DNA from: Planctomycetota bacterium
GTDB taxonomy: Bacteria; Planctomycetota; UBA1135
Direction of reading: 5' to 3'
NCBI GenBank assembly: GCA_008501825.1
Contig: QQUA01000023.1
Location: forward strand, 397,994-461,993
DNA: 64,000 nt
A program made the position numbers and the translations under genes. How positions within the stretch are numbered: position 1 is the first letter of the stretch; each line of letters opens with the position of its first letter. Shown here piece by piece: positions 34,458-64,000 of the stretch. The notes below the pieces were generated by a model. The model was not told the origin of the DNA, did not search any database, and saw only the letters and a list, made by a program, of their open reading frames with translations.

Positions 34458-34474
34458 CGGAATTCCTTCCGCGT

Positions 34475-39034: not shown

Positions 39035-40021
39035 CTAAAACTGCAACAATACCGCGGCCCAGTGAAAACCGGCGCCGAAGGCGGTGAGCAAAACCTTGCT
39101 TCCCGCCGGCACCATGCCTTTGTTGCGAGCCTCCCAAAGGGCCAGGGGAACCGAGGCCGATCCGGTGTTGCCGTAATCCTGGACGTTGATGTAGACCTTC
39201 TCCAGAGGAAAGCCCAGCGATTTGGCCACGGAATGCAAAATGCGAATATTGGCTTGGTGGGGCACGAACAAATCGATGTCGTCGGTGCTCCAGCCAACCT
39301 GATTCAACACCTCGTGGGCGGCGGCGCTCATGCGACTGACGGCTTCCTTGAACACCTCGCGGCCGTTCATCACCACTCGATTGTGGACGTTGTCCTCGGC
39401 CACTTCTTTGGAGAAAGGAACCCGGGTGCCGCCGATCTCCTTACCCAAAATGTCGGCTTTGCTGCCGTCGGTTCCAGTGGTGACGGCTAAGACCTCCACC
39501 AAATCCTGGCCCTGATCGATCACCATGGCTCCGGCACCGTCGCCGAACAGGACGCAAGTGTTGCGGTCCTGCCAACTCATGATTTTGGAAATGGCTTCCA
39601 CTCCCAAAACCAAAATGGGTCCGCCACGAACCGCGACCCGGGAACAAGCCAGATCCACCGCTTGCAGAAAGCCAGCGCAGCCGCTTCCGGCCAAATCGTA
39701 AGCCGGAACTTCGCCGGCGCCGATTTGATGTTGGATGTAGGCGGCGGTATCCGGGTTGTAAACCTCGGGCGTATCGGTGGCGACGATGATTTCCCGCAAC
39801 TCCCCCGGTTGCACCGCCGCTTCTTCCATGGCCAAGCGAGCCGCCGCCATGCCGAGGTCCACGGTGGTTTCCTTTTCCCCGGCAAACCGCCGCTGGTGGA
39901 TTCCGGTTCGTTCTACGATCCACTCATCGGAGGTGTCCACGTACCGGGTCCAATCTTCGTTGGTCATGACCCGTTCCGGAACGTAAGCACCCAGCCCCCG
40001 AAATCCGATTTTTTGCTGCAC
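39035..40021 (-). CDS. fabH: 3-oxoacyl-ACP synthase III
   Basis: GLGAYVPERVMTNEDW...TSDEWIVERTGIHQRRFA, active-site GSGCAGF, VPHQANIRI, and GNTGSASVPLAL. Confidence 0.9.
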   Translation of the reverse strand: MQQKIGFRGLGAYVPERVMTNEDWTRYVDTSDEWIVERTGIHQRRFAGEKETTVDLGMAAARLAMEEAAVQPGELREIIVATDTPEVYNPDTAAYIQHQIGAGEVPAYDLAGSGCAGFLQAVDLACSRVAVRGGPILVLGVEAISKIMSWQDRNTCVLFGDGAGAMVIDQGQDLVEVLAVTTGTDGSKADILGKEIGGTRVPFSKEVAEDNVHNRVVMNGREVFKEAVSRMSAAAHEVLNQVGWSTDDIDLFVPHQANIRILHSVAKSLGFPLEKVYINVQDYGNTGSASVPLALWEARNKGMVPAGSKVLLTAFGAGFHWAAVLLQF

Positions 40022-40145
40022 CTTGGTCGTCCTGCGTCACGAGGTAAGGATTGACCACATTGTAGGCGTCGGTTTTCCCTGCCGTTGTCGTTCTCCATCC
40101 CAAGGGCAAAAATGGGGACGCCGCCTTTCCTCTCGGCCTGCCGCC

Positions 40146-43100
40146 ATGTCCAAACCACCGCCGCACCACCACGAAGACCCTTCGGATGAAGCGGAGCGAT
40201 TGTTCAGCCAGTTTTTGGATGAACAGGATTCCGGCCAGGCCTCCGATTTTGAAAGCTGGGTGACGGCCTATCCGGCTCATCAACAGGCGCTCCGGGCTTT
40301 GCACCAGGACTGGTCGGCGGTTCGCCAGGCCTTCAGTCCAGAGACTGATCCGCTGGCCTCCTCCGATGCCCCTTCGCCCAATTTGCAAGCGCAGCACCTC
40401 CACCGCCTGCTGGCGCGGTTGGCTTCCCAAGGGCCGAAAGACCACCGCTATCAAAAAGCCCGTGAAATCGCCCGCGGCGGCATGGGAGCCATTTACGAGG
40501 TGCAGGACACTCTGCTCCGCCGGGAACTGGCGATGAAGGTCATGCTGCGAAGAGAGGAGCGGCCGCCGCGGCAAGGCAGCAGTCCAAGTGAAGAGGCCTG
40601 CTTGGTTCGGTTTCTGGAAGAAGCGCAAATTACCGGCCAACTGGAGCACCCGGGAATCGTCCCGATTCACGAACTGGGTTTGGCCGCCAACGGCCAGGTG
40701 TTTTTCACCATGCCCCTGGTTCGGGGCCGCAACTTCAAAGAAATCATCGAGGAAGTCCACCGCGGCCATCCCAATTGGAGTTTGCAAAGAGCCATCGGCG
40801 TGATTCTTCACGTTTGTCGAACCATGGCCTATGCCCACGCCAAAGGGGTGGTCCATCGTGATTTGAAACCCCGCAACATCATGGTCGGGCCTTTCGGCGA
40901 GACTTTTGTGATGGATTGGGGTCTGGCCAAAGTGCAAGGCTGGGAGGACCGCCGCGACATTCGCCCGGCCGTGGCGGAACAGAAAAAGCACCCGCCGGTT
41001 CGAACCGAGCGCAGCGAAACTCCCGACCAAAGTCCCGACTCTCCAGTATTGACCGTCGATGGCGACGTCCTCGGCACGCCGGCTTATATGTCGCCGGAAC
41101 AAGCGCAAGGGAAGTTGGAATGGGTCGGCCCGTCTGCAGACATCTACGCCGTCGGTGCCATGCTTTACCACCTGCTATCAGGAGGCCCCCCCTATTTGCC
41201 TCCCGGAACCCAACGCAGCGCCCGGAGCTTATTGGAAGCCCTGCAAGAAGGAGAACCGCCGGCGGTGGAAAGTCTGGCGACTTGGGCACCAGCCGAGTTG
41301 GCAGCGATTTGTGAAAAAGCCATGGCCCGGGCGCCGCAAGACCGCTATGCCGGCATGTCGGAAATGGCCGACGAACTACAAGCCTTTTTAGACGGCCGGG
41401 TGGTTCATGCTTATCAAAGCGGAGCCATCGCCGAGTTTCGCAAATGGGTTCGGCGAAATCGCTTGGCCGCCGGCTCCTTGCTTGCCGCTGCGGTGATCGC
41501 CCTCAGCGGAGCGACGCTGCTGTTTTGGAAGCAAAGCTCGTGGAACGAACGCTTGCAGGATCAAAACAAACTCCTTCAAGCCGCCGGTACTGCGATTGAA
41601 GAAAAAAGCGTTCAATTGCAAGCGACTCTGGAAAAGGTTTCCCGCCTCAGCGATCGCAGCGAAGTGGCGGCCTTGCAGGAATTGGCGCAAGAAAGGTGGG
41701 TGATCCACCCGCGGAACGCCGATCGTTACCAGCAATGGCTACAACGAGCCCAGGCTCTATTGGCCAATCAACCCCTACATCGGAGTTTCCTGAACGAATT
41801 ACGCCAAACCGCCCAACCGATCAACGATCAGCAAAAGGAACAGGATCGACTTCATCATCCACAAGCGGAAAGGTTGCGGAATTTACAACAAGAGCAAGCC
41901 GATTTAATGGCGGCCGACCCGGAATTGTCCGCCGATCGAAAACAGCGGATCGCCGCACGCCTGCAATTTTTAGAACAGGAAATCCCGCGCTTGCAGACCG
42001 TGGTTCAAGAACGGCGCAGTTGGCAATTCGAAAACCCGCAAACCGGACGCCTGCACCATGCCGTGCAACGATTGTTGGCCGACTTGGAGGCCTTGGAAGC
42101 CGGCGAACTCAGCTTGTTCGCCAGAATGCGTTGGGCGTTGGAAGAAGCCCAAGCTTTACGCCCCAACACGATTACTCAGCAATCCGATTTATGGAATCAG
42201 GCAATCGAGGCCATTTCGGACCCGCAGCAACATCCTCAATATCAGGGATTGCAAATCGAGCCGCAAATGGGCTTGGTTCCCCTGGGACCAGATCCTGATA
42301 CTGGCTTCTGGGAATTCGGCCACTGGCTCAGCGGCCAGATTCCGAAAAGGGACTCTCGGGGTAGATTGATCCTGAGTCCGGAATCCAGTCTGGTTCTGGT
42401 TCTCCTGCCGGGTGGCGGCTTCACCATGGGAGCCGATTCCGATCCGAATCAAATCCAGCACGACCCCTTCCGTCAAAGCCAGGAAGGTCCGGCTCATGCA
42501 GTGGAGCTGGCGCCCTTTTTCCTATCCAAGTACGAAATGACTCAGGCCCAATGGGCTCGGATTTGGGGTTCGAACCCGGCCTTCTTCTCCGACCGTTGGC
42601 AGATCCAAGACCCGGTGGACGCCTGGTTGCGGCCGGTGGAGCGGGTTTCCTGGTATCAATGCACCTCGCTCTTGGAACAGGTCGGCCTGCAATTGCCCAC
42701 CGAAGCCCAGTGGGAATACGCAGCCCGGGGAGGGAGTCCCCATGCCTGGTACCCCGGCTCCGACCCCCAGGCGGTTCAGGGGCATGCCAACCTTGCGGAT
42801 CCGAAGCTGCTGGCCAAAGCCGCCTCGGCCGGGTTTCTCCTGGGCCGGAACGGGTCTAAGGCGGCCGAGAGTTGGACCCAAGGGGAGCTCTTGGAAGATC
42901 CCTTCGCCCTACCCTCGCCAGTTGGCAGTTTTTTGCCAAACTCATTGGGATTGTATGACGTGATCGGCAACGTCCGGGAATGGTGCCAGGATGGTCTTGG
43001 GCCTTACCACCTGCCGGTGGAGGGCGCTCATGCCCTGCGCCAGGTGCCCCGCCACCGCCACCGCCGAGTCCACCGGGGCGGCAGCTTTCTGGTTTCCCCC

Positions 43101-43244
43101 TTCGCCGCTCGCAGTGCCCATCGAGGGGTAGACGGCGCCGAAACCCGGGATCCGGACCTCGGACTTCGCCCCGCCAGACCCTTGCTGGCCCGAGATCAAG
43201 TTCAGGGAATTTTCGAGCCGCCGCCGGAAGCTGATACCCGATAA
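40146..43244 (+). CDS. Ser/Thr protein kinase fused to a C-terminal formylglycine-generating-enzyme (FGE/SUMF1)-like domain
   Basis: ATG at 40146 (MSKPPPHHHED). Kinase motifs are HRDLKPRNIMV, DWGLAK and GTPAYMSPEQ. A TM segment follows (LAAGSLLAAAVIALSGATLLFW), then a coiled coil. FGE-like motifs are GGGFTMGAD, PAHAVELAPFFLSKYEMTQAQW, RVSWYQCTSLL, LPTEAQWEYAARGG, YDVIGNVREWCQD and RVHRGGSF. Confidence 0.85.
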   Translation: MSKPPPHHHEDPSDEAERLFSQFLDEQDSGQASDFESWVTAYPAHQQALRALHQDWSAVRQAFSPETDPLASSDAPSPNLQAQHLHRLLARLASQGPKDHRYQKAREIARGGMGAIYEVQDTLLRRELAMKVMLRREERPPRQGSSPSEEACLVRFLEEAQITGQLEHPGIVPIHELGLAANGQVFFTMPLVRGRNFKEIIEEVHRGHPNWSLQRAIGVILHVCRTMAYAHAKGVVHRDLKPRNIMVGPFGETFVMDWGLAKVQGWEDRRDIRPAVAEQKKHPPVRTERSETPDQSPDSPVLTVDGDVLGTPAYMSPEQAQGKLEWVGPSADIYAVGAMLYHLLSGGPPYLPPGTQRSARSLLEALQEGEPPAVESLATWAPAELAAICEKAMARAPQDRYAGMSEMADELQAFLDGRVVHAYQSGAIAEFRKWVRRNRLAAGSLLAAAVIALSGATLLFWKQSSWNERLQDQNKLLQAAGTAIEEKSVQLQATLEKVSRLSDRSEVAALQELAQERWVIHPRNADRYQQWLQRAQALLANQPLHRSFLNELRQTAQPINDQQKEQDRLHHPQAERLRNLQQEQADLMAADPELSADRKQRIAARLQFLEQEIPRLQTVVQERRSWQFENPQTGRLHHAVQRLLADLEALEAGELSLFARMRWALEEAQALRPNTITQQSDLWNQAIEAISDPQQHPQYQGLQIEPQMGLVPLGPDPDTGFWEFGHWLSGQIPKRDSRGRLILSPESSLVLVLLPGGGFTMGADSDPNQIQHDPFRQSQEGPAHAVELAPFFLSKYEMTQAQWARIWGSNPAFFSDRWQIQDPVDAWLRPVERVSWYQCTSLLEQVGLQLPTEAQWEYAARGGSPHAWYPGSDPQAVQGHANLADPKLLAKAASAGFLLGRNGSKAAESWTQGELLEDPFALPSPVGSFLPNSLGLYDVIGNVREWCQDGLGPYHLPVEGAHALRQVPRHRHRRVHRGGSFLVSPFAARSAHRGVDGAETRDPDLGLRPARPLLARDQVQGIFEPPPEADTR

Positions 43245-43446: not shown

Positions 43447-43998
43447 ATGAAGATCTCTCGCTGGCCCGCCCAGCTTGTCGCTCTGGGTCTACTGACCACT
43501 GCCGCCGGCGCCTGCATCGAGGCCCTGGACCTGGCCAAGATGGTGCAGCGCACCGATACCGCGGTTCGTGGCACCATCACCGACGTTCGGACCGTCAAGT
43601 ACACCCCTCCCGGTGACGACCGTCTGATCTACACCATTTTGACCATTGAAGGGGAAGACCTCTTCAGCGGTAAGGAACGCACTTTGGAAGCCGCCTTCCT
43701 CGGCGGCACTTACGAAGGCGATTCCATGATGGTCACCTCCATGCCCGCCGCCGCCGACTACCGGCTCGGTAACAAGGTCGTGGTGTTCAGCGCTCCGGTC
43801 GAAGGCTGGGGCCCGGAAATCGATCGCTGCGTCTACGCCGCCATGGGCGGCATCTTCAAGGAAGTCGCCACCAAGAAGGGGCCGGTCTTCCTCGGCAAGG
43901 GCGAAGGTTTCGCCATTGACCAGAACATGAGCCTGAGCCAACTCCAGGCCGGTATCGCCAAGGCGCTCGAAGCCAAGCAGAAGGAGGTCAACCGATGA
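43447..43998 (+). CDS. Small secreted protein S1 (183 aa) with Cys directly after the signal peptide; partner of metzincin P1
   Basis: ATG at 43447. The signal peptide MKISRWPAQLVALGLLTTAAGA is followed by CIEALDL. There are only two Cys in total (C23, C128). The stop overlaps the P1 start (ATGA). No known family was recognised. Confidence 0.75.
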   Translation: MKISRWPAQLVALGLLTTAAGACIEALDLAKMVQRTDTAVRGTITDVRTVKYTPPGDDRLIYTILTIEGEDLFSGKERTLEAAFLGGTYEGDSMMVTSMPAAADYRLGNKVVVFSAPVEGWGPEIDRCVYAAMGGIFKEVATKKGPVFLGKGEGFAIDQNMSLSQLQAGIAKALEAKQKEVNR

Positions 43999-45346: not shown

Positions 45347-45459
45347 TTCCTTTGTTAGGATGCCGAGCGCCCCTCGGCGGTTACACCGGCGAGGGCCTCT
45401 TGCTAGTTACCCCCCAAAACCCATCTTCCTCCCGAGAACGAACCCCAGGAGACACCTTG

Positions 45460-46011
45460 TTGAAATCCCTCAGATGGCCTGCCGTGTTGGTGGCAGGCAC
45501 TTTGCTGACCGCCGGTGCGGTGGCCTGCATCGAGGCCTTGGACTTGGCCAAGATGGTGCAGCGCACCGATACCGCGGTTCGCGGCACCATTACCGACGTT
45601 CGGACCGTCAAGTACACCCCTCCCGGTGACGACCGTCTGATCTACACCATTTTGACCATTGAAGGGGAAGACCTCTTCAGCGGTAAGGAACGCACTTTGG
45701 AAGCCGCCTTCCTCGGCGGGACCTACGAAGGCGATTCCATGATGGTCACCTCCATGCCCGCCGCTTCCGACTACCGGCTCGGCAACAAGGTCGTGGTGTT
45801 CAGCGCTCCGGTTGAAGGCTGGGGCCCCGAAATCGATCGCTGCGTCTACGCCGCCATGGGCGGCATCTTCAAGGAAGTCGCCACCAAGAAGGGGCCGGTC
45901 TTCCTCGGCAAGGGCGAAGGTTTCGCCATTGACCAAAACATGAGCCTGAGCCAACTCCAGGCCGGCATTGCCAAGGCGCTCGAAGCCAAGCAGAAGGAGG
46001 TCAACCGATGA
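45460..46011 (+). CDS. Small secreted protein S2 (183 aa), N-terminal-Cys family
   Basis: There is no in-frame ATG. A TTG at 45460 (or 45457) gives (M)KSLRWPAVLVAGTLLTAGAVA|CIEALDL, the same length as S1. The mature part differs from S1 by one residue (AAADY -> AASDY). Confidence 0.7.
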   Translation: MKSLRWPAVLVAGTLLTAGAVACIEALDLAKMVQRTDTAVRGTITDVRTVKYTPPGDDRLIYTILTIEGEDLFSGKERTLEAAFLGGTYEGDSMMVTSMPAASDYRLGNKVVVFSAPVEGWGPEIDRCVYAAMGGIFKEVATKKGPVFLGKGEGFAIDQNMSLSQLQAGIAKALEAKQKEVNR

Positions 46012-48702: not shown

Positions 48703-48732
48703 AGCGGATAGGGCTGTTGCCGTCGTCGATCA

Positions 48733-48758
48733 GGAGGGAAGCCCAGCGGCTTCCCTCC
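48733..48758. terminator. Hairpin between P3 and the trailer end of the CRISPR array
   Basis: 11-bp perfect stem GGAGGGAAGCC / GGCTTCCCTCC with loop CAGC, followed by AGGTTGTTT. Given the convergent transcription here, it could act in both directions. Confidence 0.45.
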
Positions 48759-48783
48759 AGGTTGTTTCGAGGGACAGGTTTTG

Positions 48784-51700
48784 CGGGTCAGCCCCGCATG
48801 CGCGGGGAACAGCCGAGCCTGGCCGATTTATTCAGCCTACAATTCGGGTCAGCCCCGCATGCGCGGGGAACAGCGGCGTCAGCCTCCCAGTGCCCGTAAA
48901 CATCGCGGGTCAGCCCCGCATGCGCGGGGAACAGCAACACGTTTTTCATAATTAGTTTCGCCAATTCGGGTCAGCCCCGCATGCGCGGGGAACAGCGGCG
49001 TCAGCCTCCCAGTGCCCGTAAACATCGCGGGTCAGCCCCGCATGCGCGGGGAACAGTCAGACATTCCTTTGATAGATAAAGGAACTACCGGGTCAGCCCC
49101 GCATGCGCGGGGAACAGCGGCGTCAGCCTCCCAGTGCCCGTAAACATCGCGGGTCAGCCCCGCATGCGCGGGGAACAGCAGGGCGGCCATTTTTTTGGAT
49201 TTAGTATTGACGGGTCAGCCCCGCATGCGCGGGGAACAGTTAAAAGCTCCAAGGCGCCGGCATTATCTAGGCGGGTCAGCCCCGCATGCGCGGGGAACAG
49301 TTGCGCATTCACATTCTAAACCATTCCCAACACGGGTCAGCCCCGCATGCGCGGGGAACAGGCTTTTTATTCGCCTCGTCCCAATACACATTTTGGGTCA
49401 GCCCCGCATGCGCGGGGAACAGTAAGCCCATCCCGCCGTGGCCAATCAATCCAGCGGGTCAGCCCCGCATGCGCGGGGAACAGTTCGCGCACGCATGCCA
49501 AAACCTCAAAAACGACGGGTCAGCCCCGCATGCGCGGGGAACAGTCAGTTCAAGTTACGCCCAGGTTTACGCAAGACGGGTCAGCCCCGCATGCGCGGGG
49601 AACAGACTGCCGCGACTTCATTCAACGTCCACGACGACGGGTCAGCCCCGCATGCGCGGGGAACAGTTGCAGTTCGCCGAGGGCGACAACAATGACCACG
49701 GGTCAGCCCCGCATGCGCGGGGAACAGCAGGGCGGCCATTTTTTTGGATTTAGTATTGACGGGTCAGCCCCGCATGCGCGGGGAACAGGCTGTACGGGAA
49801 GCTATGGAGGATCCGATGGACGGGTCAGCCCCGCATGCGCGGGGAACAGACTGGGTTGCCGGCGCTGTTTCATCCGGTTCACGGGTCAGCCCCGCATGCG
49901 CGGGGAACAGGCAATTGGACCACACGAGTCCCACCAGAGGCGCGGGTCAGCCCCGCATGCGCGGGGAACAGCGAATCGTCGCCAGTTTCCTCCTCTTCTT
50001 CGCCGGGTCAGCCCCGCATGCGCGGGGAACAGGTGGAGCCTCGCTTTTTCTTCGCTTCGGCCGCCGGGTCAGCCCCGCATGCGCGGGGAACAGCACAAAG
50101 CAAGCGCAGTGCTTAAAGCATCCTGCGGGTCAGCCCCGCATGCGCGGGGAACAGGGTTTGCTTGCCGCGCGGGATTGCCCGGCACCCGGGTCAGCCCCGC
50201 ATGCGCGGGGAACAGAATGACGCGGTTATTGAGCCGCTGATTCAAGGCGGGTCAGCCCCGCATGCGCGGGGAACAGTTCCCGCCAGTTTTTCACAATTAC
50301 CCTAAATACGGGTCAGCCCCGCATGCGCGGGGAACAGAGGCAAGGCCACTGTAGCCATTATTTATCCTCCGGGTCAGCCCCGCATGCGCGGGGAACAGAG
50401 TGTACGTAGAGTTTCAATCTTCCCGGGTCTCGGGTCAGCCCCGCATGCGCGGGGAACAGTAAGTAATATCTTTCTAGGACATTGTGTAATACGGGTCAGC
50501 CCCGCATGCGCGGGGAACAGATGGATCGCCGAGTAGTAAATGCCGAAGAATACGGGTCAGCCCCGCATGCGCGGGGAACAGAAATGTAAGATAAGGTAGC
50601 TCTATCGCCTAGCCGGGTCAGCCCCGCATGCGCGGGGAACAGGGCGACGGCACCGTTCGGCCACGTCAAAAGCCGCGGGTCAGCCCCGCATGCGCGGGGA
50701 ACAGTCGGATTGATCCCAACGGATGGAGTCTCGAGGCGGGTCAGCCCCGCATGCGCGGGGAACAGGAGAAAGGGGAAAGGACGCCATCGGCTGGCAGCGG
50801 GTCAGCCCCGCATGCGCGGGGAACAGTGGCGGTCGCGAAGGAGTGGACCGAAAAGATTCGGGTCAGCCCCGCATGCGCGGGGAACAGTTTGATCGCGTTT
50901 TTCATTGCACTCCTCCCGCCGGGTCAGCCCCGCATGCGCGGGGAACAGTCACTATCCCAGGTGTACTCGTTTTCTGGATCCGGGTCAGCCCCGCATGCGC
51001 GGGGAACAGTGGTTTGCCTCCCCCTCATCCAACCATTCATCCGGGTCAGCCCCGCATGCGCGGGGAACAGGCGGACCTGATGGGGGCCTCTTACCAAGAT
51101 GTCGGGTCAGCCCCGCATGCGCGGGGAACAGGCACTAGTATTTACATTGGTATCACTATCTGCTGGGTCAGCCCCGCATGCGCGGGGAACAGCTCTGCCT
51201 GCGCTCGGCTCGGCGCCAAAGATTCGGGTCAGCCCCGCATGCGCGGGGAACAGCACCTGTGCGTTTTTAAGTGTCCCAAGTAATCCGGGTCAGCCCCGCA
51301 TGCGCGGGGAACAGTTTGCAGACAGACTCAATAAATTGGGCGACGTCGGGTCAGCCCCGCATGCGCGGGGAACAGGCCGAAATAGTCGGTAATCAGGTTT
51401 ACAAGTACGGGTCAGCCCCGCATGCGCGGGGAACAGGAGGTCGGAAGACTGGGGGAGGAGGCGGACTTCGGGTCAGCCCCGCATGCGCGGGGAACAGTCA
51501 AATCCACAGGCCCAAGCAACGGCTCACAGCGGGTCAGCCCCGCATGCGCGGGGAACAGTCTAACAGCTTCTCTTCAGTTCTATTCATTGTCGGGTCAGCC
51601 CCGCATGCGCGGGGAACAGGAATTAGAAGTGTGTTCAAACCCTGCCAAAGACGGGTCAGCCCCGCATGCGCGGGGAACAGGACTACCTGGGCTGACGCTG

Positions 51701-52290
51701 TATCTTCCAGACCGGGTCAGCCCCGCATGCGCGGGGAACAGACATATTCGGGCGCGATCAATTGCGCGTTTTTCGGGTCAGCCCCGCATGCGCGGGGAAC
51801 AGAAAGGTTTTTTCACCAAACACAATAGATAAATCGGGTCAGCCCCGCATGCGCGGGGAACAGAGCGCACTCGCCGGCCCCGGGCAAAGCTGAATCGGGT
51901 CAGCCCCGCATGCGCGGGGAACAGGAATTTGTCGCCAGATATTCGATGATGCACGTCGGGTCAGCCCCGCATGCGCGGGGAACAGTGTCCATCGGTTTTG
52001 TCCCGACCAAGGTCCGACGGGTCAGCCCCGCATGCGCGGGGAACAGTTTCCGGCGTCGGCGCAACTGGAGTGCCAACACGGGTCAGCCCCGCATGCGCGG
52101 GGAACAGTGGAAAAGGAAGCGCCGTTGTGACCGATCCGCCGGGTCAGCCCCGCATGCGCGGGGAACAGTTTCGGTGGAAAAAACTACCGGAAATCTACGA
52201 CGGGTCAGCCCCGCATGCGCGGGGAACAGGGAGATATCGGCCCTGCCCAAGCCGGGATTAACGGGTCAGCCCCGCATGCGCGGGGAACAG
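48784..52290 (-). CRISPR. Type I-E CRISPR array, 58 repeats / 57 spacers
   Basis: The 29-nt repeat on the plus strand is CGGGTCAGCCCCGCATGCGCGGGGAACAG. Its reverse complement, CTGTTCCCCGCGCATGCGGGGCTGACCCG, resembles the E. coli I-E repeat GAGTTCCCCGCGCCAGCGGGGATAAACCG and has the same CCCCGC/GCGGGG stem. The period is 61 nt, with 56 spacers of 32 nt and one of 33 nt. The 28-nt core read as invariant in all 58 copies by eye. Orientation is inferred from the repeat, the adjacent cas2-cas1 genes and the leader at the high-coordinate end. Confidence 0.97.
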
Positions 52291-52355
52291 TCCATTCCGA
52301 AGTCTACAAAAATGAAGGGTTTACGAAAACCATTATCTGGCACCAAAATTGCCGG
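52291..52355 (-). promoter_or_regulatory. CRISPR leader (65 nt between cas2 stop and first repeat)
   Basis: A comparatively AT-rich segment (minus strand: CCGGCAATTTTGGTGCCAGATAATGGTTTTCGTAAACCCTTCATTTTTGTAGACTTCGGAATGGA) lies directly upstream of repeat 58. No promoter was mapped. Confidence 0.6.
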
Positions 52356-53647
<1,292 letters not shown>

Positions 53648-53650
53648 GGT

Positions 53651-54313
53651 TTAGTCAGCTCTCCGCACAAGGATCATCCCGCAGCCAAAAGCGCGAGATG
53701 GACCCAATCCAGTACATAAGGTGCGAATCAACTTGCTTGGATCTTTGACTTCCATGCGCCCTTCAAAATCCACTTGGCCGAATCGAATCTGGTGCTTTTG
53801 CTTTCGACTGTTTTTCTGAAACTTTACCACCCTGTAGCCCTCCACGCGAACATCGATCAAACGAAACCCATTCCTTTCGGACCGAGCCTCTAACCATGTC
53901 TCTCCAGCCCCCTGAGCGTGTTCAATGCGATTCAGATCCTTTGAAGTCTTTCCTTTTGTACGAGCGAGTACCTTAGCATGCATTACCACATCGTGTCGGA
54001 CATGGCCTTGCCGAAGCACCGGGTTTGCACGTAGGCGGAAGTGGAGCATCTGGCCTTCCGAAAGCTTTGGCTGAAAGGGTTTAGTCTCCACGTTCCAAAG
54101 ACCGGAATCATCAACGCAAGGACGAGGACCCAGAATCAGCAGCGTCGGCCTCCCGCTTCCCATATCCAACCGAAAGAGGAAGTCACGGGACGCCTCTTTC
54201 GGGAGATCTTGTAGCCGCCACACTTCTTGGTGCAAAGCGTAAGGCTGGCCGATCTGCCAGAAACGATTGTGCTCGGGCGCTCGATCACTAAGCATTAGTC
54301 GAGACAGATACAT
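53651..54313 (-). CDS. cas6e: Cas6e (CasE) crRNA endoribonuclease
   Basis: ATG at 54313 (TGATG overlap with the cas5 stop). MYLSRLMLS...ALHQEVWRL and the C-terminal GLGPSRAFGCGMILV parallel E. coli CasE (MYLSKV...LHQGLWHLF, GIGPAKSMGCGLL). The ORF-track start at 54388 lies inside cas5. Confidence 0.9.
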   Translation of the reverse strand: MYLSRLMLSDRAPEHNRFWQIGQPYALHQEVWRLQDLPKEASRDFLFRLDMGSGRPTLLILGPRPCVDDSGLWNVETKPFQPKLSEGQMLHFRLRANPVLRQGHVRHDVVMHAKVLARTKGKTSKDLNRIEHAQGAGETWLEARSERNGFRLIDVRVEGYRVVKFQKNSRKQKHQIRFGQVDFEGRMEVKDPSKLIRTLCTGLGPSRAFGCGMILVRRAD

Positions 54314-55068
54314 CAACTCCCCTCCCCAATTGTGTCCGGAATTACTGGAAGCTTTGCCCGAAACTCGATTCGTTCGTCGTACTGCCAACGTCGCCGGGAA
54401 ACGGGATCATCCCGCCGGAGTACCGATTGCGCAGCATCCAGGGCGCCGACGGGCAAAGCTGATTCCCAGAAAAAAGTGCCCGAACCGTTACCATTTGGGG
54501 GTCGCATGTTTCCTGGAAGTCGCACCGATACGGCTGCAAGCGCTGTCGGTGCGTCGTCGGCCGATACGATTTGCGGGTTGAAGGGCAGAGCCGTAGGACA
54601 GGATTTCCGACCGAGAAAGGGAATGAACGCCGGCCGCTGGAGGGCGGCAGCAAGCTTTTCTAGGGTCGGCGCCCCATCGCTTTGGCGGACCACCACCACT
54701 CTGTACCAGGCATCCTCCCGATATTCTCGTTGAGTAATCAAGGCTTTGACGTCACCGATCATAGCCAGGTCCTGCCCTCTGGTTCGTGGCCCCACCTTTT
54801 CCCTGGCTGGTGGCTTCCTTGACTGGACAGTGTGGTAATCCCACGTACTGCGGCCAGAGCTGAACATCTCAACTCCGAACACAAGGGCCTGGTTTAGTCG
54901 GGAATGTCCCTCGTCGTCGGTGCGGGGAAGGCCAAGCGCACCTGCCAAAAGCCCCAGCAAAGCGCTCCGGCCCGGATGGTCTTCCGAAGCCCGAACCTCA
55001 CCGACCGCGATGCCACCCCAAGCCGACCATGGACCGAAAAGTTGGAAAACAAGGAATTCCACTATCAC
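54313..55068 (-). CDS. cas5: Cas5e (CasD)
   Basis: LVFQLFGPWSAWGGIAVGEVRASEDHPGRSALLGLLAGALG is a typical Cas5e N-terminus. Operon position agrees. Confidence 0.9.
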   Translation of the reverse strand: MIVEFLVFQLFGPWSAWGGIAVGEVRASEDHPGRSALLGLLAGALGLPRTDDEGHSRLNQALVFGVEMFSSGRSTWDYHTVQSRKPPAREKVGPRTRGQDLAMIGDVKALITQREYREDAWYRVVVVRQSDGAPTLEKLAAALQRPAFIPFLGRKSCPTALPFNPQIVSADDAPTALAAVSVRLPGNMRPPNGNGSGTFFWESALPVGALDAAQSVLRRDDPVSRRRWQYDERIEFRAKLPVIPDTIGEGS

Positions 55069-56102
55069 ACTCCAGGCAGGCGGCTAGAGGCGAAGTCCGC
55101 GACTTCCTGCAGGCTTCCCTTTCCCCGGGTCACATCAAAGCTCTTTATTTCTCGAGCAGAAGGTCCGTAAACTTTTTCGAAATCCCTCCGAGTATCTTCA
55201 AAAGCCTTGATTCCATTCGCCAAGAGATCAGAACCCGCTATTGGCTTGAGAAAAGCTACGGCAAGGGATCGGGGTTGTGCGTCGCCACGTTCCGCCAGAA
55301 TGAAGCTGGCATACGCCCGCGATGCGAAGCTATTTTGCTTCCCACGGGGAGCAACCGTCGCCGCCGTTTTAACGAGTGAATTCACTGCCGGCACTGCCAG
55401 CGCCTTGTCGTCACCCAAATTGCCCGTAAGCTGGTTAAGATCAAGACAAACGTAGAGGTAAAACAAGCCCGCGGCGAAACCTAGCTCATCTAAGTGCCCT
55501 GCTCCACGGTTGAGATCGTCGACCGCCGTGAAATAGTCGTCTTCAACTGCAACACGATGGATGCTAAATGCATGAGCAACCTGGCAGGCGGCCTCGACGT
55601 TGTAATGCGGGGATGCCGCAAGCATTCGGCCGAAGAGAGCCACGTCTACCGCATCAGTCTTCGCGTCAAGGAGCGCGCTGATTTCCTCCGAAGTCGCTTC
55701 GCGCTGTTCCCGCCCCATCATAGAACAAAGTTCGTCGATCGACCTCAGCTCGCGCGGGCTATAGTGGACGAGTTGCTCCGTTTCAAGTGACTTCTTCTTA
55801 CGCTTTCCAAACTGATCCACAATTGGGCCGGCCCATTTTTCAGCAGATTTTTGTTCGACTCCGGCCTGGATCAAGCTTTGAACGATCCGGTTTCCGATCT
55901 CCTTAGTACGAAGGCCCAAATCGGCGACCACTCCGTCGCGGAAGGGGGCTGCCGTTCGCCATGTACGTTTGAGGCACTGAGACGAAATCCGCAGGCGTTG
56001 AACGCCGCCAAAGATGGCGGTCTTCGGCCGAGAAAGGTCGTCTCGGTTCAAGTTGGCCGGCGGATAACTGGTCAGCAAATGGAGTTGCAAGAAGTCAGTC
56101 AT
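55065..56102 (-). CDS. cas7: Cas7e (CasC/Cse4)
   Basis: FLQLHLLTSYPPANLNRDDLSRPKTAIFGGVQRLRISSQCLKRTWR is a typical Cas7e N-terminus. Confidence 0.92.
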   Translation of the reverse strand: MTDFLQLHLLTSYPPANLNRDDLSRPKTAIFGGVQRLRISSQCLKRTWRTAAPFRDGVVADLGLRTKEIGNRIVQSLIQAGVEQKSAEKWAGPIVDQFGKRKKKSLETEQLVHYSPRELRSIDELCSMMGREQREATSEEISALLDAKTDAVDVALFGRMLAASPHYNVEAACQVAHAFSIHRVAVEDDYFTAVDDLNRGAGHLDELGFAAGLFYLYVCLDLNQLTGNLGDDKALAVPAVNSLVKTAATVAPRGKQNSFASRAYASFILAERGDAQPRSLAVAFLKPIAGSDLLANGIKAFEDTRRDFEKVYGPSAREIKSFDVTRGKGSLQEVADFASSRLPGV

Positions 56103-56626
56103 TTCGAAGTTTCCTGGTTAGGCGTCACGTCGTAGTAGTCGTAGGCCCACTGTCTCTGCAGATGGACCGGGAAGGAAAAGGCGGCCTGGGCGAAACCACC
56201 GAGGTCAACGTTTTCGAGTTGGGCAGCGATACGGCGCAACGCAATGTATCTTTGAGAGAGATCGGAGGCCGTCTCAAGCAGACGACGAAATCGAAGCTCG
56301 CTGATTACGGGGCGATCTCCTACTGGGCGTCCGAGCTGAGCGCCAGGGGTCAACTTGTCAGAGGACACATCGCGTCGAATGGTGGCAGTAACTCCCGCCA
56401 CGGCCGCAAGCGGCAGTGGGCTAAATTTTGAATCGGTTTCTTGAAGACGGCGGCGGAGTCGATGAAACGCGGGAACGAACGCCACGTCGGAAAGGTCAAC
56501 GCAGCGACGAAGCTCCGCTTGACCCGCTCGGTCGTTTTCCTTCAAATCCATCCACCAAACACGCAAAATGGTTTGGCCTGCTCCGTCTTCCTTTCGGAAA
56601 TCCAACCATTGTTTGTCTTTGCTCAA
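56099..56626 (-). CDS. cse2: Cse2 (CasB/Cas11e) small subunit
   Basis: 175 aa, Arg-rich and helical (AELRRCVDLSDVAFVPAFHRLRRRL). It lies between cse1 and cas7, with 4-nt overlaps on both sides. Confidence 0.85.
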   Translation of the reverse strand: MSKDKQWLDFRKEDGAGQTILRVWWMDLKENDRAGQAELRRCVDLSDVAFVPAFHRLRRRLQETDSKFSPLPLAAVAGVTATIRRDVSSDKLTPGAQLGRPVGDRPVISELRFRRLLETASDLSQRYIALRRIAAQLENVDLGGFAQAAFSFPVHLQRQWAYDYYDVTPNQETSK

Positions 56627-58203
56627 GTCAGAATCTCCTTCTTGCTAATCTTCTTTTTCCTTTCTCTCCCGGGGGGAGAAATTCCTAGCTGCTTATACAT
56701 CTTTGGACCTCTTAACTTCATGCTCAGGGCTTTCCAAGCCATAGCCACCGACCTTGGGGAAACGACCATCTTGGATTCCACATCCACCGCCTGATTAAAA
56801 AGGCGGCTGACTTCTTGTTCCAGCACATCGCGCCATTCCCGCATATATTGATCAGCCGCTATCCCAACCGGATCACTGCGTAGTTGGTCGACCATCTCAT
56901 AAAATCTATCCTCAGTCTCGCGCCAGAGCCGCCCGTTTAAGGACTGCCCAAATGTCTTCTTGGTAGGAGAGCTAACCCGGACCGCTTCGGCCACGTGTTT
57001 GCACAATGCCCAGGCGGCGTAGTCAACAGCCGCGACGAGAGCATGTGTACGGACCGCGAAGGCTTCACGCAAATCCTGAGCGACGTCGATCCAAGGCATG
57101 ATAGATTCGTTCCATGAACGGATTTTCGCGTTTGCTGTCTGGAACCCGAATGCCCATACCCGCAATTCAGCCGACCGCCCACTATCCATTTGATTACGCC
57201 GTGCGCTGAGGACGGACGCCGGCTCGACTCCACCAGCTCCAAGCACCCAACCTGGCCAGTTCCGGTACGTCATCCCGCTACCCGGAGTTTCGACAAATCG
57301 CAAAGAACCATCCTGCTTTTTGATTTGCGGCGAGAGTGGATGACGCCACCCACCAGAGTAGGACAGGCCTTCGCTTTCAGTTTGGAACTCCGTCGCCAGC
57401 CGGTTGTCTGAATAGCCGCATAGCCCACAGAAACCCTTAACATCGCTCCAGTGAAGCCGCAAGCGTCGGGATTGCGAAAAGAAGACTTGATCGGGTGAAG
57501 AATTTTCAGGTGTGCATTGCACCCGTTTCACGCTCTTGCCACTTTTCCAATCTTCAAACCAGGGAAAGCGGTCGGCAAGCGACCTCTTATCCACGGCTCC
57601 GTAATCCATGAACTGATCTTGCTTCAAAACATTTAGCCAACAAGTATGAAACAATGTGCCTGCATCTGGATGCGGGTCCAGGAGGAGAGTCGTGACTGGA
57701 CCGCCTCCTCGGAGTCCGGAGAAGTAGCCGCGCCCACTAGGGGCACCAGTTTGGGTAAGACTAATGATTGCCGCCGCCGTACAAGGTCGACAAAGCCCCT
57801 CCATGGGAGCACGCCGGACGAAAATCCCGCTCTCCGGCCACTCTACCAGGAGCCGCTCAATGGGTTCCCATTTTGAAGTCGCCGGGCTCCAGGCATCCTG
57901 GAGAAACGCCGGGGGTTGCGAAGGGTCAAGTTCGAATGCTTTAGCTATCGATGAGAAACTCTCATGCAACACTTCCGGCGCGGGCGGAGTGTCAAAATCG
58001 CGCCGCCAGTCCCGCGGATATGCCGGAGCTCGAGTACATTGCAAAAGGCCGATCAGGAACTGAATGAGAGCTCCATTGAAATCAGCCCGGGGAGCGTCGA
58101 GTCGGACCGGTCGGTCTTCCGCGGTGAGATCAGCCGGGCGAATCCGCCGGCGGCTCCCACTTTGAAGCACAACCGGAATCCAAGGGTCGAAAATCAGATT
58201 CAT
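56623..58203 (-). CDS. cse1: Cse1 (CasA/Cas8e) large subunit
   Basis: MNLIFDPWIPVVLQSGSRRRIRPADL is a typical Cse1 start. Length is 526 aa, and it sits directly downstream of cas3. Confidence 0.88.
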   Translation of the reverse strand: MNLIFDPWIPVVLQSGSRRRIRPADLTAEDRPVRLDAPRADFNGALIQFLIGLLQCTRAPAYPRDWRRDFDTPPAPEVLHESFSSIAKAFELDPSQPPAFLQDAWSPATSKWEPIERLLVEWPESGIFVRRAPMEGLCRPCTAAAIISLTQTGAPSGRGYFSGLRGGGPVTTLLLDPHPDAGTLFHTCWLNVLKQDQFMDYGAVDKRSLADRFPWFEDWKSGKSVKRVQCTPENSSPDQVFFSQSRRLRLHWSDVKGFCGLCGYSDNRLATEFQTESEGLSYSGGWRHPLSPQIKKQDGSLRFVETPGSGMTYRNWPGWVLGAGGVEPASVLSARRNQMDSGRSAELRVWAFGFQTANAKIRSWNESIMPWIDVAQDLREAFAVRTHALVAAVDYAAWALCKHVAEAVRVSSPTKKTFGQSLNGRLWRETEDRFYEMVDQLRSDPVGIAADQYMREWRDVLEQEVSRLFNQAVDVESKMVVSPRSVAMAWKALSMKLRGPKMYKQLGISPPGRERKKKISKKEILT

Positions 58204-58211
58204 CTTTTTTC

Positions 58212-60908
58212 TTAATCCTCAGAAAATTGCAGTCCAAGTAAGTGATTGTAGCGGACGGTCACTGGACCAGAAACACTTTTGGCCTTCGCCAACCAGGAAT
58301 CAGCATCTGGGCGGAGAAAGAGCAGAATTCGGTTACGCCCCTGGTCAGGCATCTGAGCCCTGACGGTTGAAGACAAGGGATCCGCAACCTCATCGGAAAT
58401 CCTCCTCTGGACAACTGTAAGCTCGGACAATCCCCAAGCGACAACCGGATCTGGATCATCCCACCAGGGTCGCGGCTCGGAGAAACCGTCATCCTTTACC
58501 AGCCTGACGGTAACCGTCCGCTCCCCAAGACGGGTACGGATGTTTTCATCATCAAACCAGGCACCGTCAGCCGAATAGCCGGTTTTCATGGTAAGAACAC
58601 TTTGGCTCGCAGTACCAGCCTGGGCCAATCGATCTCCTTCCGCTTGCTCACTTCTGTCTATGAGCGAATCCGGCACCTTCAGAGGAGACTCGTCAGCGTA
58701 AACAGTCTCGATCGCATTCCTTGCATCATCCGGAACTTGAAAACCGCGGTTTTGCTCCAGCCAGGCTGCAGTACGCCAAAGGATGGCTGGATCACGGTAG
58801 ACAAAGCCCGTTCGAGGCAACACTTTAGCAGGCCAGTCGGACAAAACACTTCCCAGGGGAGATGGCGAAAGGAGACCGAGTCGTGGCTTGCCTCTAGCAT
58901 CGGGCCCTTCAAAAACGGCACCATTTCCGTCTCGGGGATGCCGCATCAATCTTCCCGCGCGTTGAATGATTAAATCCATCGGTGCGAGATCGGTAACCAT
59001 CCAGTCGAAATCAACGTCGAGAGACTGTTCAAGCACCTGTGTAGACACGACTACGTGTCCAGCGCGTTCAGCCGGCTTGCCATATTTACCAAATCGCCGC
59101 ACAACCAAGCGTTCGGTAGCCAGACGGTCACCCAATGCAAAGCGCGCATGGAAAAGTATGACTCTGTCAGCCCCGAGTCTGGCACGGAGCATTTGCCACG
59201 CCTCCATGGCGTCGTCAACTGTGTTACGAATCCAAGCGACGCACCTCCCCTCCTCGGCAGTTGCCACGATTCGGGCAACCACATCGTCTTCAAGGTCAAA
59301 CCTTTCCACCTCAACCCTGCGACGGCAAATTGTCCGGCTTGTGGGCGCATGCCTTCGAGTTTGGGTGGCATTGATCGCCGTCACAAGTGGGTAAGGAGCC
59401 TCTTCAATCCTAGGTGAAGTTTTCATTCCGACTCCACTCCTGAATGCTTTCTCCAAATCACAGCGAACCCTAGCTGGCAACGTCGCAGATAACAAAATGA
59501 CATGGCCGCCAAGGCCAGCTTGGAATTCCAATAGACGTCGCAGTTCGCCAAGCATATATGCATCGCACGCATGCACTTCATCCACAACAAGGACGTGCCG
59601 GCAGAGCCCGAGCAGCCGGAGTGATTGATGGGCCGCAGGGAGTACAGCAAGAAGCGCTTGGTCGATCGTTCCAACTCCAAGGTGGGCAAGGAGTGCGCTC
59701 TTTCGCGAGTCGGTCAACCAAGATCGGGCCGCAGTAGAAGCACTGGGCTCTCCATCGGTGTATTTCGTTTCTTTCCCAGCATCGAGGACTCTCATCCGCC
59801 GCGCCAAAGAAGCACCGGAATGAGCCAAAATTACCTCAATCGATGACTCGAATAACCGGTCCCCAAGAGAGTCCACTCGGCCGAACATGGCGTTGGCTGT
59901 AGCCATGGTAGGAAGTGCAAAGAAAACGCCGGACGCCTCACCTGCCGCGAGCAGTCGGCCGGCGAGAACCATTGCAGCTTCGGTTTTCCCGCCACCAGTT
60001 AACTCCTCGACGATCCAAAGCTTCGGACCTGCACCAAGCTCAATAGTGGACATTTTGTCCTGAAGTGGAGTCGCTTCAAAGTCAGGAAAGAACTCCGAAA
60101 AGAGTCCCGATTCTAGAGTAATAGTTGGCGGAATTATCTTGGCAGCACAAACAGCTTCCCGCGCCGCCGGCCGGGCAACTTCCTGCCAATATTCACCAAG
60201 GTCCCTGGGCTCGGATTGGTATCGAAAGAATTTCGTGTTGGATCCGAGCCAGTCTGAAACCACCGCCAAACCGGCCACAAGCCACGATGTGCGACGTTGA
60301 GCGTCAAAGTGACGTTCATAGTCATCAAGGTCAAAGATCGGGGCACACCCAAGCAATCGACCGACATCGGTAATAAACTCTCTTGCATCCCTTTCTGTAG
60401 AAGGTGGAAAATGCTGGCCTAAAGCCCAGGGAATGTCGGAGCGAGTGGGCCGGCCGTGGTGCCCTGTGACGGCGGTCACGGCCGGGGTCCAAAGATCCAA
60501 CAAATCCTCCTCAGATCCATGCTCCGCCGTCAACTGAGCTGAAAAACTGCTAAGGCTGAAGAGCCCCTTTTCGGTCAGAAAGCGGCGCCCAAGTTCATCA
60601 TGCCGAATGCAGTACGGAACGTTAGATGATTTGGTGCTGGGACGAAGTTTGAGGTCCTGCCTAAGGTTTTGAAAACTCTCCGCAAACTTTCCTACATCGT
60701 GGAGAGCAATAAGCGTTATCAACCAAGGGGTTATCCTGTCCTCCGGCGTTTCCAAAAGGTCGGCAAGCCGTTTCCGAAGCAAGGCATCTCCTTCCAATAT
60801 GCATTCACAGACCGCTGCGACGTCAAGGGAATGGCAGGCCAGTGGGTGCCAGACTTCCTGCCCAGGCTCGGCTTTTCCCCAATATCGCCAGTAACCATTC
60901 ATCGCCAA
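58212..60908 (-). CDS. cas3: Cas3 HD nuclease / SF2 helicase
   Basis: HD-domain motifs are HPLACHSLDVAAV, ALHDVGK and TGHHG. Helicase motif I is TGGGKTEAA and motif II is VDEVHA. Length is 898 aa. Confidence 0.93.
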   Translation of the reverse strand: MAMNGYWRYWGKAEPGQEVWHPLACHSLDVAAVCECILEGDALLRKRLADLLETPEDRITPWLITLIALHDVGKFAESFQNLRQDLKLRPSTKSSNVPYCIRHDELGRRFLTEKGLFSLSSFSAQLTAEHGSEEDLLDLWTPAVTAVTGHHGRPTRSDIPWALGQHFPPSTERDAREFITDVGRLLGCAPIFDLDDYERHFDAQRRTSWLVAGLAVVSDWLGSNTKFFRYQSEPRDLGEYWQEVARPAAREAVCAAKIIPPTITLESGLFSEFFPDFEATPLQDKMSTIELGAGPKLWIVEELTGGGKTEAAMVLAGRLLAAGEASGVFFALPTMATANAMFGRVDSLGDRLFESSIEVILAHSGASLARRMRVLDAGKETKYTDGEPSASTAARSWLTDSRKSALLAHLGVGTIDQALLAVLPAAHQSLRLLGLCRHVLVVDEVHACDAYMLGELRRLLEFQAGLGGHVILLSATLPARVRCDLEKAFRSGVGMKTSPRIEEAPYPLVTAINATQTRRHAPTSRTICRRRVEVERFDLEDDVVARIVATAEEGRCVAWIRNTVDDAMEAWQMLRARLGADRVILFHARFALGDRLATERLVVRRFGKYGKPAERAGHVVVSTQVLEQSLDVDFDWMVTDLAPMDLIIQRAGRLMRHPRDGNGAVFEGPDARGKPRLGLLSPSPLGSVLSDWPAKVLPRTGFVYRDPAILWRTAAWLEQNRGFQVPDDARNAIETVYADESPLKVPDSLIDRSEQAEGDRLAQAGTASQSVLTMKTGYSADGAWFDDENIRTRLGERTVTVRLVKDDGFSEPRPWWDDPDPVVAWGLSELTVVQRRISDEVADPLSSTVRAQMPDQGRNRILLFLRPDADSWLAKAKSVSGPVTVRYNHLLGLQFSED

Positions 60909-61417
60909 CTCTACTAACTTTGGGGTTGAGACATGATCTTGAACTTGGTTCGAAAGCTTTGGCCCGCGGAATTAGAGAAGCTACTTCCCTATTCTTTTCT
61001 TAGTCAACCGACCAATAACCAACTTTACTCATCGGCATGGTCAGCGCCCGGTTTACGGACAAGGGAAATTCGAGGTGTCAAACTCTAGCAAATTCTCGAC
61101 GGATCCTTGAAGAATTGCGTTCAGCTACCCAGCGGAGCGATTCAGGGCGAAATATTGCCCTCGAGTTCTCTTTAGTTTCTCCTTTTCGGCGCCAGAAGTG
61201 GCCCAAGACCCCAGTTTCCTTGGTCAGGTTCCCAAAAACCTGAGGGCGGCCGGCCAGATTCCAGCCGGCGAGGTGGCCCCCTAGTTTGGGTTTCCAGTGG
61301 TAGCATGGCCCGACGGCCGGCCCACGAGGGTGCCGGTCTACTGGCCAAATTCCATCTCGAGGTCCCGGAAAGGCCAGGCATTCCATCCCTCCTACCTACC
61401 CCAACCTGGAGTCCCCG

Positions 61418-61966
61418 ATGAAGTTAGCCAAGGGCTTGGCCACAGTTTTGGCCGGCAGCTTACTGGTCGGTGGAGCTTTCGCCTGCATCGAAGCTCTCGA
61501 CCTGGCAAAGATGGTGGACCGCACCGACACCGCGGTTCGTGGCACCATCACCGACGTTCGCACCGTTAAGTACACCCCCCCTGGTGACGACCGTCTGATC
61601 TACACCATTTTGACCATTGAAGGGGAAGACCTCTTCACCGGTAAGGAACGCACTCTGGAAGCCGCCTTCCTCGGCGGAACCTACGAAGGCGATTCCATGA
61701 TGGTCACCTCCATGCCCGCTGCCTCCGACTACCGGCTTGGCAACAAGGTCGTGGTGTTCAGTGCTCCGGTCGAAGGCTGGGGCCCCGAAATCGATCGTTG
61801 CGTCTACGCCGCCATGGGCGGCATCTTCAAGGAAGTCGCCACCAAGAAGGGGCCGGTCTTCCTCGGCAAGGGCGAAGGTTTCGCCATTGACCAAAACATG
61901 AGCCTGAGCCAACTCCAGGCCGGCATCGCCAAGGCTCTTGAAGCCAAGCAGAAGGAGGTGAAGTGA
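61418..61966 (+). CDS. Small secreted protein S3 (182 aa), N-terminal-Cys family
   Basis: MKLAKGLATVLAGSLLVGGAFA|CIEALDL. The mature part is nearly identical to S1/S2. Its stop overlaps the P4 ATG (TGATG). Confidence 0.75.
   Translation: MKLAKGLATVLAGSLLVGGAFACIEALDLAKMVDRTDTAVRGTITDVRTVKYTPPGDDRLIYTILTIEGEDLFTGKERTLEAAFLGGTYEGDSMMVTSMPAASDYRLGNKVVVFSAPVEGWGPEIDRCVYAAMGGIFKEVATKKGPVFLGKGEGFAIDQNMSLSQLQAGIAKALEAKQKEVK
61484..61960 (+). repeat. High-identity repeat, copy 3
   Basis: Colinear with 43513-43990 at roughly 93-95 % identity by eye. It includes perfect runs of more than 50 nt, e.g. GGTGACGACCGTCTGATCTACACCATTTTGACCATTGAAGGGGAAGACCTCTTCA. Confidence 0.8.
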
Positions 61967-63471: not shown

Positions 63472-64000
63472 ATGAAACCTCGCCCTTTGTTTTACGGCCT
63501 GCTGTTGAGCGGGTTTTTGGCCTCGGCCGCCGGCGCTTGCATTGAAGCTCTGGACTTGACCAAGATGGTGCAACGCACCGATACCGCGGTTCGTGGCACC
63601 ATCACCGACGTTCGGACCGTCAAGTACACCCCTCCCGGTGACGACCGTCTGATCTACACCATTTTGACCATTGAAGGGGAAGACCTCTTCAGCGGGAAGG
63701 AACGCACTTTGGAAGCCGCCTTCCTCGGCGGCACCTACGAAGGCGATTCCATGATGGTCACCTCCATGCCCGCCGCCTCCGACTACCGGCTTGGCAACAA
63801 GGTCGTGGTGTTCAGCGCTCCGGTCGAAGGCTGGGGCCCCGAAATCGATCGTTGCGTCTACGCCGCCATGGGCGGCATCTTCAAGGAAGTCGCCACCAAG
63901 AAGGGGCCGGTCTTCCTCGGCAAGGGCGAAGGTTTCGCCATTGACCAAAACATGAGCCTGAGCCAACTCCAGGCCGGCATCGCCAAGGCGCTCGACGCCA
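63472..64000 (+). CDS. Small secreted protein S4, 3' end cut by window edge
   Basis: ATG at 63472. MKPRPLFYGLLLSGFLASAAGA|CIEALDLTKMVQRTDTAVRGT... The frame is open to the window end, which is why it is missing from the ORF track. Confidence 0.75.
   Translation, partial: MKPRPLFYGLLLSGFLASAAGACIEALDLTKMVQRTDTAVRGTITDVRTVKYTPPGDDRLIYTILTIEGEDLFSGKERTLEAAFLGGTYEGDSMMVTSMPAASDYRLGNKVVVFSAPVEGWGPEIDRCVYAAMGGIFKEVATKKGPVFLGKGEGFAIDQNMSLSQLQAGIAKALDA
63538..64000 (+). repeat. High-identity repeat, copy 4 (truncated by window)
   Basis: Colinear with 43513 onward, and the same direct orientation as the other three copies. Confidence 0.8.

Follow-up and report, generated by a model that had tools for sequence, protein, structure and literature searches.

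A complete type I-E CRISPR-Cas locus lying between long direct repeats of a lineage-specific operon family in an uncultured planctomycete

Type I-E CRISPR-Cas loci of the kind described from E. coli K-12 and Thermus share eight cas genes in the canonical order cas3-cse1-cse2-cas7-cas5-cas6e-cas1-cas2, followed by a leader and by an array of 29-nucleotide (nt) palindromic repeats and 32-nt spacers with a period of 61 nt. In S. epidermidis RP62a, where a CRISPR-Cas locus lies between direct paralogues, it was shown experimentally that CRISPR-Cas deletions arise, among other routes, via recombination between paralogous genes (Jiang et al. 2013, PMC3784566). Another related arrangement is the tandem paralogue family under concerted evolution. 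Features of all three are found in the 64,000-nt stretch of a Planctomycetota genome described here (contig QQUA01000023.1; the whole stretch is called the window below). In it, a type I-E locus lies within a family of two-gene operons, or modules, each with a gene S for a small conserved protein and a gene P for a metalloprotease. The CRISPR-Cas locus itself is ordinary and its neighbourhood is slightly unusual, the arrangement being of a known kind.

The genome is a metagenome-assembled genome (MAG) obtained from short reads, and the locus tags lie on its 479,528-bp contig. An independent assembly of the run SRR7585904 was available for comparison in the form of the Logan contigs L001 and L006. 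The cas genes were scored with NCBIfam models at their curated cut-offs and the P genes with Pfam Peptidase_M10 (PF00413), while positions 1-43000 of the window served as the composition baseline, with 24 genes as the gene-level background. The order of the elements is S1-P1-S2-P2-P3 on the plus strand, the CRISPR-Cas block on the minus strand, and S3-P4-S4 again on the plus strand, with P5 just past the window end (Table 1). The initial annotation had described the locus as embedded in an S/P array and bracketed by long direct repeats. This description is borne out: eight cas genes and the array were found on the minus strand and the S copies on the plus strand. Taken together, a complete I-E locus lies inside a lineage-specific S-P family, bracketed by repeats that were homogenised in their S part, and most likely it entered an existing array by an old horizontal route.

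Table 1. Features of the CRISPR-Cas locus and the flanking S-P modules, in window positions. GenBank tags: S1, P1, S2, P2 and P3, DWQ01_21555-21575; cas genes, DWQ01_21580-21615; S3, P4, S4 and P5, DWQ01_21620-21635.
Feature	Position	Strand	Description
S1	43405/43447-43998	plus	repeat copy 1 is the mature part, 43513..43995
P1	43995-45305	plus	M10 matrixin-like metalloprotease
S2	45352-46011	plus	repeat copy 2 is the mature part, 45526..46008; nearest left-hand copy to CRISPR-Cas
P2	46008-47309	plus	M10 paralogue, sister of P3
P3	47401-48702	plus	M10 paralogue, sister of P2; without an S gene of its own
P3 terminator hairpin	48733..48758	plus	intact; 25 nt ahead of the last CRISPR repeat
CRISPR array	48784..52290	minus	58 repeats of 29 nt, 57 spacers; leader-proximal end 52290
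Leader	52291..52355	minus	65 nt, non-coding, AT-rich (41.5% GC); cas2 stop to first repeat
cas2e	52356-52754	minus	TIGR01873, 119.9 bits
cas1e	52751-53647	minus	TIGR03638, 390.1 bits
cas6e	53651-54388	minus	NCBIfam I-E equivalog above cut-off; also called on L001
cas5e	54313-55068	minus	NCBIfam I-E equivalog above cut-off; also called on L001
cas7e	55065-56102	minus	NCBIfam I-E equivalog above cut-off; also called on L001
cse2	56099-56626	minus	NCBIfam I-E equivalog above cut-off; also called on L001
cse1	56623-58203	minus	NCBIfam I-E equivalog above cut-off; also called on L001
cas3	58212-60908	minus	898 aa, HD nuclease and SF2 helicase
Intergenic cas3-S3	60909..61417		509 nt
S3	61418-61966	plus	repeat copy 3 is the mature part, 61484..61963; nearest right-hand copy; 5' part joined to cas3 on L001
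P4	61963-63276	plus	M10 protease, sister of P1
S4	63466 to window end	plus	repeat copy 4 is the mature part, 63538..64000, running off the window

The repeat starts given initially (43513, 45526, 61484 and 63538) are exact, each being the Cys codon right after the signal peptide of S. Counted from there, the S stop is reached after about 480 nt, and the repeat goes on for about 45 nt into P. All four S copies are in direct orientation, with pairwise nucleotide identities of 94.0-97.1% over 462-483 nt. The perfect runs, which had been put at more than 50-80 nt, are longer still, as the longest exact runs between S copies measure 95-173 nt. Upstream of the repeats, signal peptides included, the sequences are unalignable, and the boundaries of homology are sharp. 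The mature S protein is 99% identical among the copies, while the P proteins are only 57-77% identical. Similarly, the synonymous divergence (dS) of the S copies is 0.12-0.25 and the nonsynonymous divergence (dN) at most 0.014, as against a dS of 0.65-1.28 and a dN of 0.16-0.38 in the adjoining P genes. Since the dS of S is far below that of P, S was homogenised after the divergence of P. From these sequence comparisons, the S segments appear to have stayed similar through past gene conversion and strong purifying selection, with P and the S signal peptides diverging meanwhile; the pattern points to gene conversion confined to S, with P diversifying.

In its low dS in S, with sharp boundaries and beside diverged P genes (dS 0.65-1.3), the family is like tandem paralogue families under concerted evolution. 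It differs in that the conversion here is not recent. Among the 37 variable sites of S, 30 are singletons, 4 separate S1 and S2 from S3 and S4, and 1 groups S1 with S3. The sites being mostly singletons, the last homogenisation was not recent, and no recent exchange between S copies is visible. A programmed variation system is not evident here, for silent cassettes are absent and each module carries a start and a terminator of its own.

For RecA-dependent recombination, direct repeats about 480 nt long that share exact runs of 95-173 nt suffice as substrates. The S repeats have the properties of a deletion substrate, namely direct orientation and exact runs well above the minimal processing length of RecA. 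A crossover between S2 and S3, the nearest pair, would remove 15,958 bp comprising P2, P3, the array and the cas genes, and would leave an in-frame hybrid S followed by P4, that is, an intact hybrid S-P operon. The remaining pairs would lose 17,971, 18,012 or 20,025 bp, these being the start-to-start spacings of the repeats. Since the interval from P3 to the array is free of S copies, CRISPR-Cas is not removable on its own in this manner. Thus, the earlier proposal that the flanking repeats could delete the block as a unit has a sound mechanism and a precedent in S. epidermidis, but the unit also includes P2 and P3 and measures at least 16 kb. By analogy with that precedent, deletion of P2-P3-CRISPR-Cas by recombination between S copies is plausible. 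Re-capture of an excised circle is no more than conceivable.

The likeness to RP62a lies in a CRISPR-Cas locus placed between direct paralogues, whose nucleotide identities there are 96% (SERP2353/2491) and 98% (SERP2409/2493), compared with 94-97% for S (PMC3784566). In contrast to RP62a, where deletions of 65-306 kb were observed, those of 16-20 kb considered here are predicted only, and the repeats all come from one tandem operon family (PMC3784566). The locus is a clean example of a tandem paralogue family that places long direct repeats around a defence locus, with a route of CRISPR loss already shown in staphylococci. Deletion or circle junctions, if present in the source sample, would represent natural repeat-mediated turnover of CRISPR-Cas in an uncultured lineage. 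A further proposal is that P2-P3-CRISPR-Cas constitutes a recombination-switchable cassette of 16 kb, which would leave as a circle with a hybrid S and re-integrate at any S copy, either within one cell or, following DNA uptake, in a relative. This is considered very improbable; if true, CRISPR immunity would be repeatedly lost and regained in this planctomycete population.

Judged by its sequence, the type I-E locus is standard, complete and chromosomal, and it is probably active. Seven of the eight Cas proteins pass I-E equivalog models. Cas3 passes via its core-helicase and HD-domain models (cas3_core 214.9 bits, cut-off 102.45; cas3_HD 73 bits, cut-off 43.45), its score against the full-length model PRK09694 being 499.5 bits, which is under the cut-off of 569. 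All the cas open reading frames (ORFs) are intact. The eight genes, their canonical order, the 29-nt palindromic repeats, the 32-nt spacers and the 61-nt period are common to this locus and to those of the E. coli K-12 and Thermus type. There are, nevertheless, differences from the latter. The host is an uncultured Planctomycetota bacterium, and no known protein is more than 57-60% identical to its Cas7; the closest Cas7 matches among 5.8 billion proteins, where named, belong to Gammaproteobacteria, Thermodesulfobacteriota and Verrucomicrobiota, and the best plasmid-borne Cas7 is 53% identical. The Cas2 ORF is of 132 aa, while the Cas2e model stops at residue 88, so that about 44 aa extend beyond it at the C-terminus; the non-coding leader is just 65 nt long. 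The leader may extend into this 3' extension of the cas2 ORF. The practical value of the locus is small; its contribution is a divergent I-E system in a phylum that has been little studied.

The repeat of the array, CGGGTCAGCCCCGCATGCGCGGGGAACAG, is present in 58 copies at a spacing of 61 nt, for a chance expectation of 0. While 56 of the copies are exact, those at 49394 and 51164 alone carry a single mismatch. In the transcribed, minus-strand form, the repeat reads CTGTTCCCCGCGCATGCGGGGCTGACCCG, and it contains a palindrome of the I-E type (CCCCGC-GCAT-GCGGGG). The repeat at the trailer end (48784-48812) is a perfect copy, and a degenerate terminal repeat is absent. The 57 spacers have lengths of 32-33 nt and 54 of them are unique. 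A single spacer sequence is found three times near the trailer end, in every second position (48874-48905, 48996-49027 and 49118-49149; spacers 56, 54 and 52), and another twice (49179-49210 and 49728-49759; spacers 51 and 42); the remaining ones are mutually unrelated. Such duplicated spacers could stem from an assembly artefact, from recombination within the array or from repeated acquisition. Neither the triplicate nor the duplicate spacer gave an exact match in IMG/VR, and no self-target of any array spacer was found within the window. At the other end of the block, the intergenic region between cas3 and S3 presumably carries the divergent promoters of both genes. An ORF of 102 aa in this region (61078-61386, minus) is probably not a gene, as it has no family match, is atypical in its GC content at the three codon positions and is uncalled in L001.

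The composition of the block was compared with that of its surroundings. The total GC content is 55.2% in the cas block, 56.4% in window 1-43000, 61% in the S/P blocks, 62.8% in the CRISPR array and 57.2% in P3. The GC content at third codon positions (GC3) is 0.544 in the cas genes (range 0.505-0.583) and 0.650 (median 0.656) in the 24 background genes (Mann-Whitney p=3.6e-6); all eight cas genes lie at the bottom of the local range, where only 2 of the 24 background genes have a value of 0.583 or less. The S/P genes are the real GC outliers, with a GC3 of 0.68-0.83. The distance in codon usage to the background is 0.97 for the cas genes and 1.05 for the S/P genes, compared with 0.41 ± 0.10 (maximum 0.81) for random background subsets. 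The GC contrast counted by hand in the initial annotation roughly agrees with the computed values; it was made without the baseline of 56.4%, against which the total GC of the cas genes is ordinary, and it arose mostly because the S/P genes are GC-rich and not because the cas genes are GC-poor. The composition of the cas genes is compatible with an old or partly ameliorated acquisition and also with low expression. It fits both, and is therefore weak evidence on origin.

Homologues of S (35-76% identity) were found at 46 loci in species-representative Planctomycetota MAGs, where nearly all consist of a single S directly followed by one P, the layout S-P-P being seen once. In all cases, the gene right after S codes for a protease of the M10 matrixin-like type. 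A neighbour-joining tree of 44 P proteins unites P1-P4 in a single clade (86/100), in which P1 pairs with P4 (95/100) and P2 with P3; the nearest to P5 is P4 (74%), and then P1 (72%). As the relatives carry single operons and these P proteins form a clade, the five-fold amplification is lineage-specific, with P1-like copies on both sides of the CRISPR block. Sequences at least 90% identical to S, P1-P3 or Cas7 were not found beyond this MAG and one run, and both the CRISPR repeat and the invariant 43-nt core of S were absent from JGI metagenome contigs.

With these data, the origin of the arrangement can be weighed. The CRISPR-Cas block most likely came by an old horizontal transfer into an S-P array that already existed. 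Horizontal acquisition, as advocated initially, is plausible but weakly supported: GC3 and codon usage deviate, whereas total GC and tetranucleotides are host-like and mobile hallmarks are missing. With the best Cas7 match at only 57-60%, any such transfer is old, or else the donor is unsampled. Location of CRISPR-Cas on a transposon, an integrative and conjugative element, a prophage or a plasmid was considered and rejected, no hallmarks of any of these having been found. Several observations weigh against the reading as a whole. The total GC of the cas genes does not differ from the background (p=0.058), their composition-normalised tetranucleotide signature (r=0.912) is within the background range of 0.869-0.938 (S/P, 0.777), and their low GC3 could reflect low expression instead of a foreign origin. 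No tRNA, integrase or transposase gene is present in the window, the neighbours being fatty-acid synthesis, radical-SAM, Bat/VWA and kinase genes. Neither a target-site duplication nor a terminal inverted repeat was found at the block ends, short repeats bracketing the block were not found beyond chance, and the junctions hold no S/P remnants. The S repeats, with their copy-specific singletons, are without recent exchange, and the arrangement looks stable. Furthermore, how the modules follow one another across the S repeats, and in what order the array is built internally, is taken from the short-read MAG assembly alone. As for the order of events, an array that was there beforehand makes for the more parsimonious account, since a tandem duplication spanning both sides would have copied the CRISPR block too. 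The reverse order, in which CRISPR-Cas was there first and S-P modules were later copied to both its sides by non-tandem duplication or ectopic gene conversion, with no insertion into an array, is considered unlikely, yet it has some points in its favour. P1 on the left and P4/P5 on the right are mutually closest, so the modules of both sides are linked by duplication; the S copies are weakly grouped by side (4 informative sites for S1S2/S3S4 against 1 for another split); and insertion scars at the CRISPR block were not seen. This order is opposed by the fact that unequal crossing-over, the usual source of tandem families, gives adjacent copies, that a duplication spanning the block would have doubled CRISPR-Cas, which is not seen, and that the GC3 and codon usage of the cas genes are deviant.

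A different kind of objection is that the MAG contig was mis-joined at repeats, so that the block would not truly lie within the S-P family. The source is indeed a metagenome-assembled genome, the exact runs of 128-173 nt shared by S copies and the 58 identical array repeats are classic points of mis-joining, and the duplicate spacers are possibly assembly noise. The independent assembly, however, leaves this very little room. Contig L006 covers the left junction; starting at the 3' end of P2, it spans P3 with the terminator and reaches into the last CRISPR repeat. Contig L001 covers the right junction, from the first CRISPR repeat through all the cas genes and the 509-nt intergenic region to the unique signal-peptide region of S3, and ends 75 nt into the S repeat; short contigs are interrupted at the repeats. 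For any path through the repeats, the block is flanked by P genes at one end and by an S gene at the other, oriented as in Table 1. The least credible of the alternatives is that the S-P operons have a functional tie to CRISPR-Cas, acting as accessory defence genes, and that the adjacency is selected. The sole evidence for it is the physical adjacency in this genome. Against it, none of the S-P loci of about 40 species-level relatives has a homologue of cas3, cse1, cas7 or cas1 within 10 kb, S and P have no match in PADLOC, and both carry signal peptides and are exported. An old entry of the CRISPR-Cas block into an existing S-P array remains the preferred reading.

The S-P operon, in which a matrixin-like protease always accompanies a conserved, secreted beta-barrel protein whose N-terminal Cys is invariant, is perhaps more interesting than the CRISPR locus. 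The family in this genome has exactly four members in the S cluster and five P members. S is a conserved Planctomycetota protein of 177-183 aa, whose signal peptide ends in A-x-A and is followed by an invariant Cys-Ile-Glu at the mature N-terminus. No Pfam match was obtained for the S proteins, and the AF2 model (pLDDT 84) is a beta-barrel with a C-terminal helix. The P proteins are of about 435 aa and match Peptidase_M10 at 50-60 bits; they have signal peptides, and the zinc motif HE[LY]GHALGLGH (of the HExxHxxGxxH type) and the Met-turn ATMYPS are invariant in their alignments. S is a secreted beta-barrel protein and P a secreted zinc protease of the M10 matrixin-like kind. P5 (DWQ01_21635) is annotated with 364 aa, without the N-terminal 72 residues that include the signal peptide; a truncation or a wrongly placed start may account for this. 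The last 58 aa of P1 are similar to the C-terminal end of the ORF at 33444-34457 (38% identity, E 3e-5).

An identification of S as a TIMP/NTR-type inhibitor by sequence was rejected, as there was no Pfam match and a profile search of PDB sequences gave nothing relevant. The disulphide pattern of TIMP (Cys1-Cys70, Cys3-Cys99) is not present in S either, which has one further Cys only, and this is not invariant. A Foldseek search with the S model gave only weak OB-fold matches, including TIMP-2 (1br9) with an E-value of 0.19 and a TM-score of 0.31. S may act on P as an N-terminal inhibitor in the manner of TIMP or APRin, or be a partner of P.

Some other genes of the window may be mentioned. 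Directly upstream of S1, positions 40023-43244 encode a 1073-aa Ser/Thr kinase fused to an FGE-sulfatase domain, which matches the PADLOC PD-T4-6 kinase models via its generic kinase domain only. A lipid-type biosynthetic cluster lies upstream of the S-P array (22459-31485 and 39035-40021) and includes several ketoacyl synthases, FabH, an amine oxidase/desaturase-like flavoprotein and two B12 radical-SAM enzymes. Tandem paralogue sets occur elsewhere in the window as well: a pair at 18546-19660 and 20243-21357 for 370-aa proteins with no family match (DNA 89% identical, GC3 0.79), a pair of B12-binding radical-SAM genes at 26316-27833 and 27870-29312, and a set at 32173-35534 of three unknowns of 337-393 aa.

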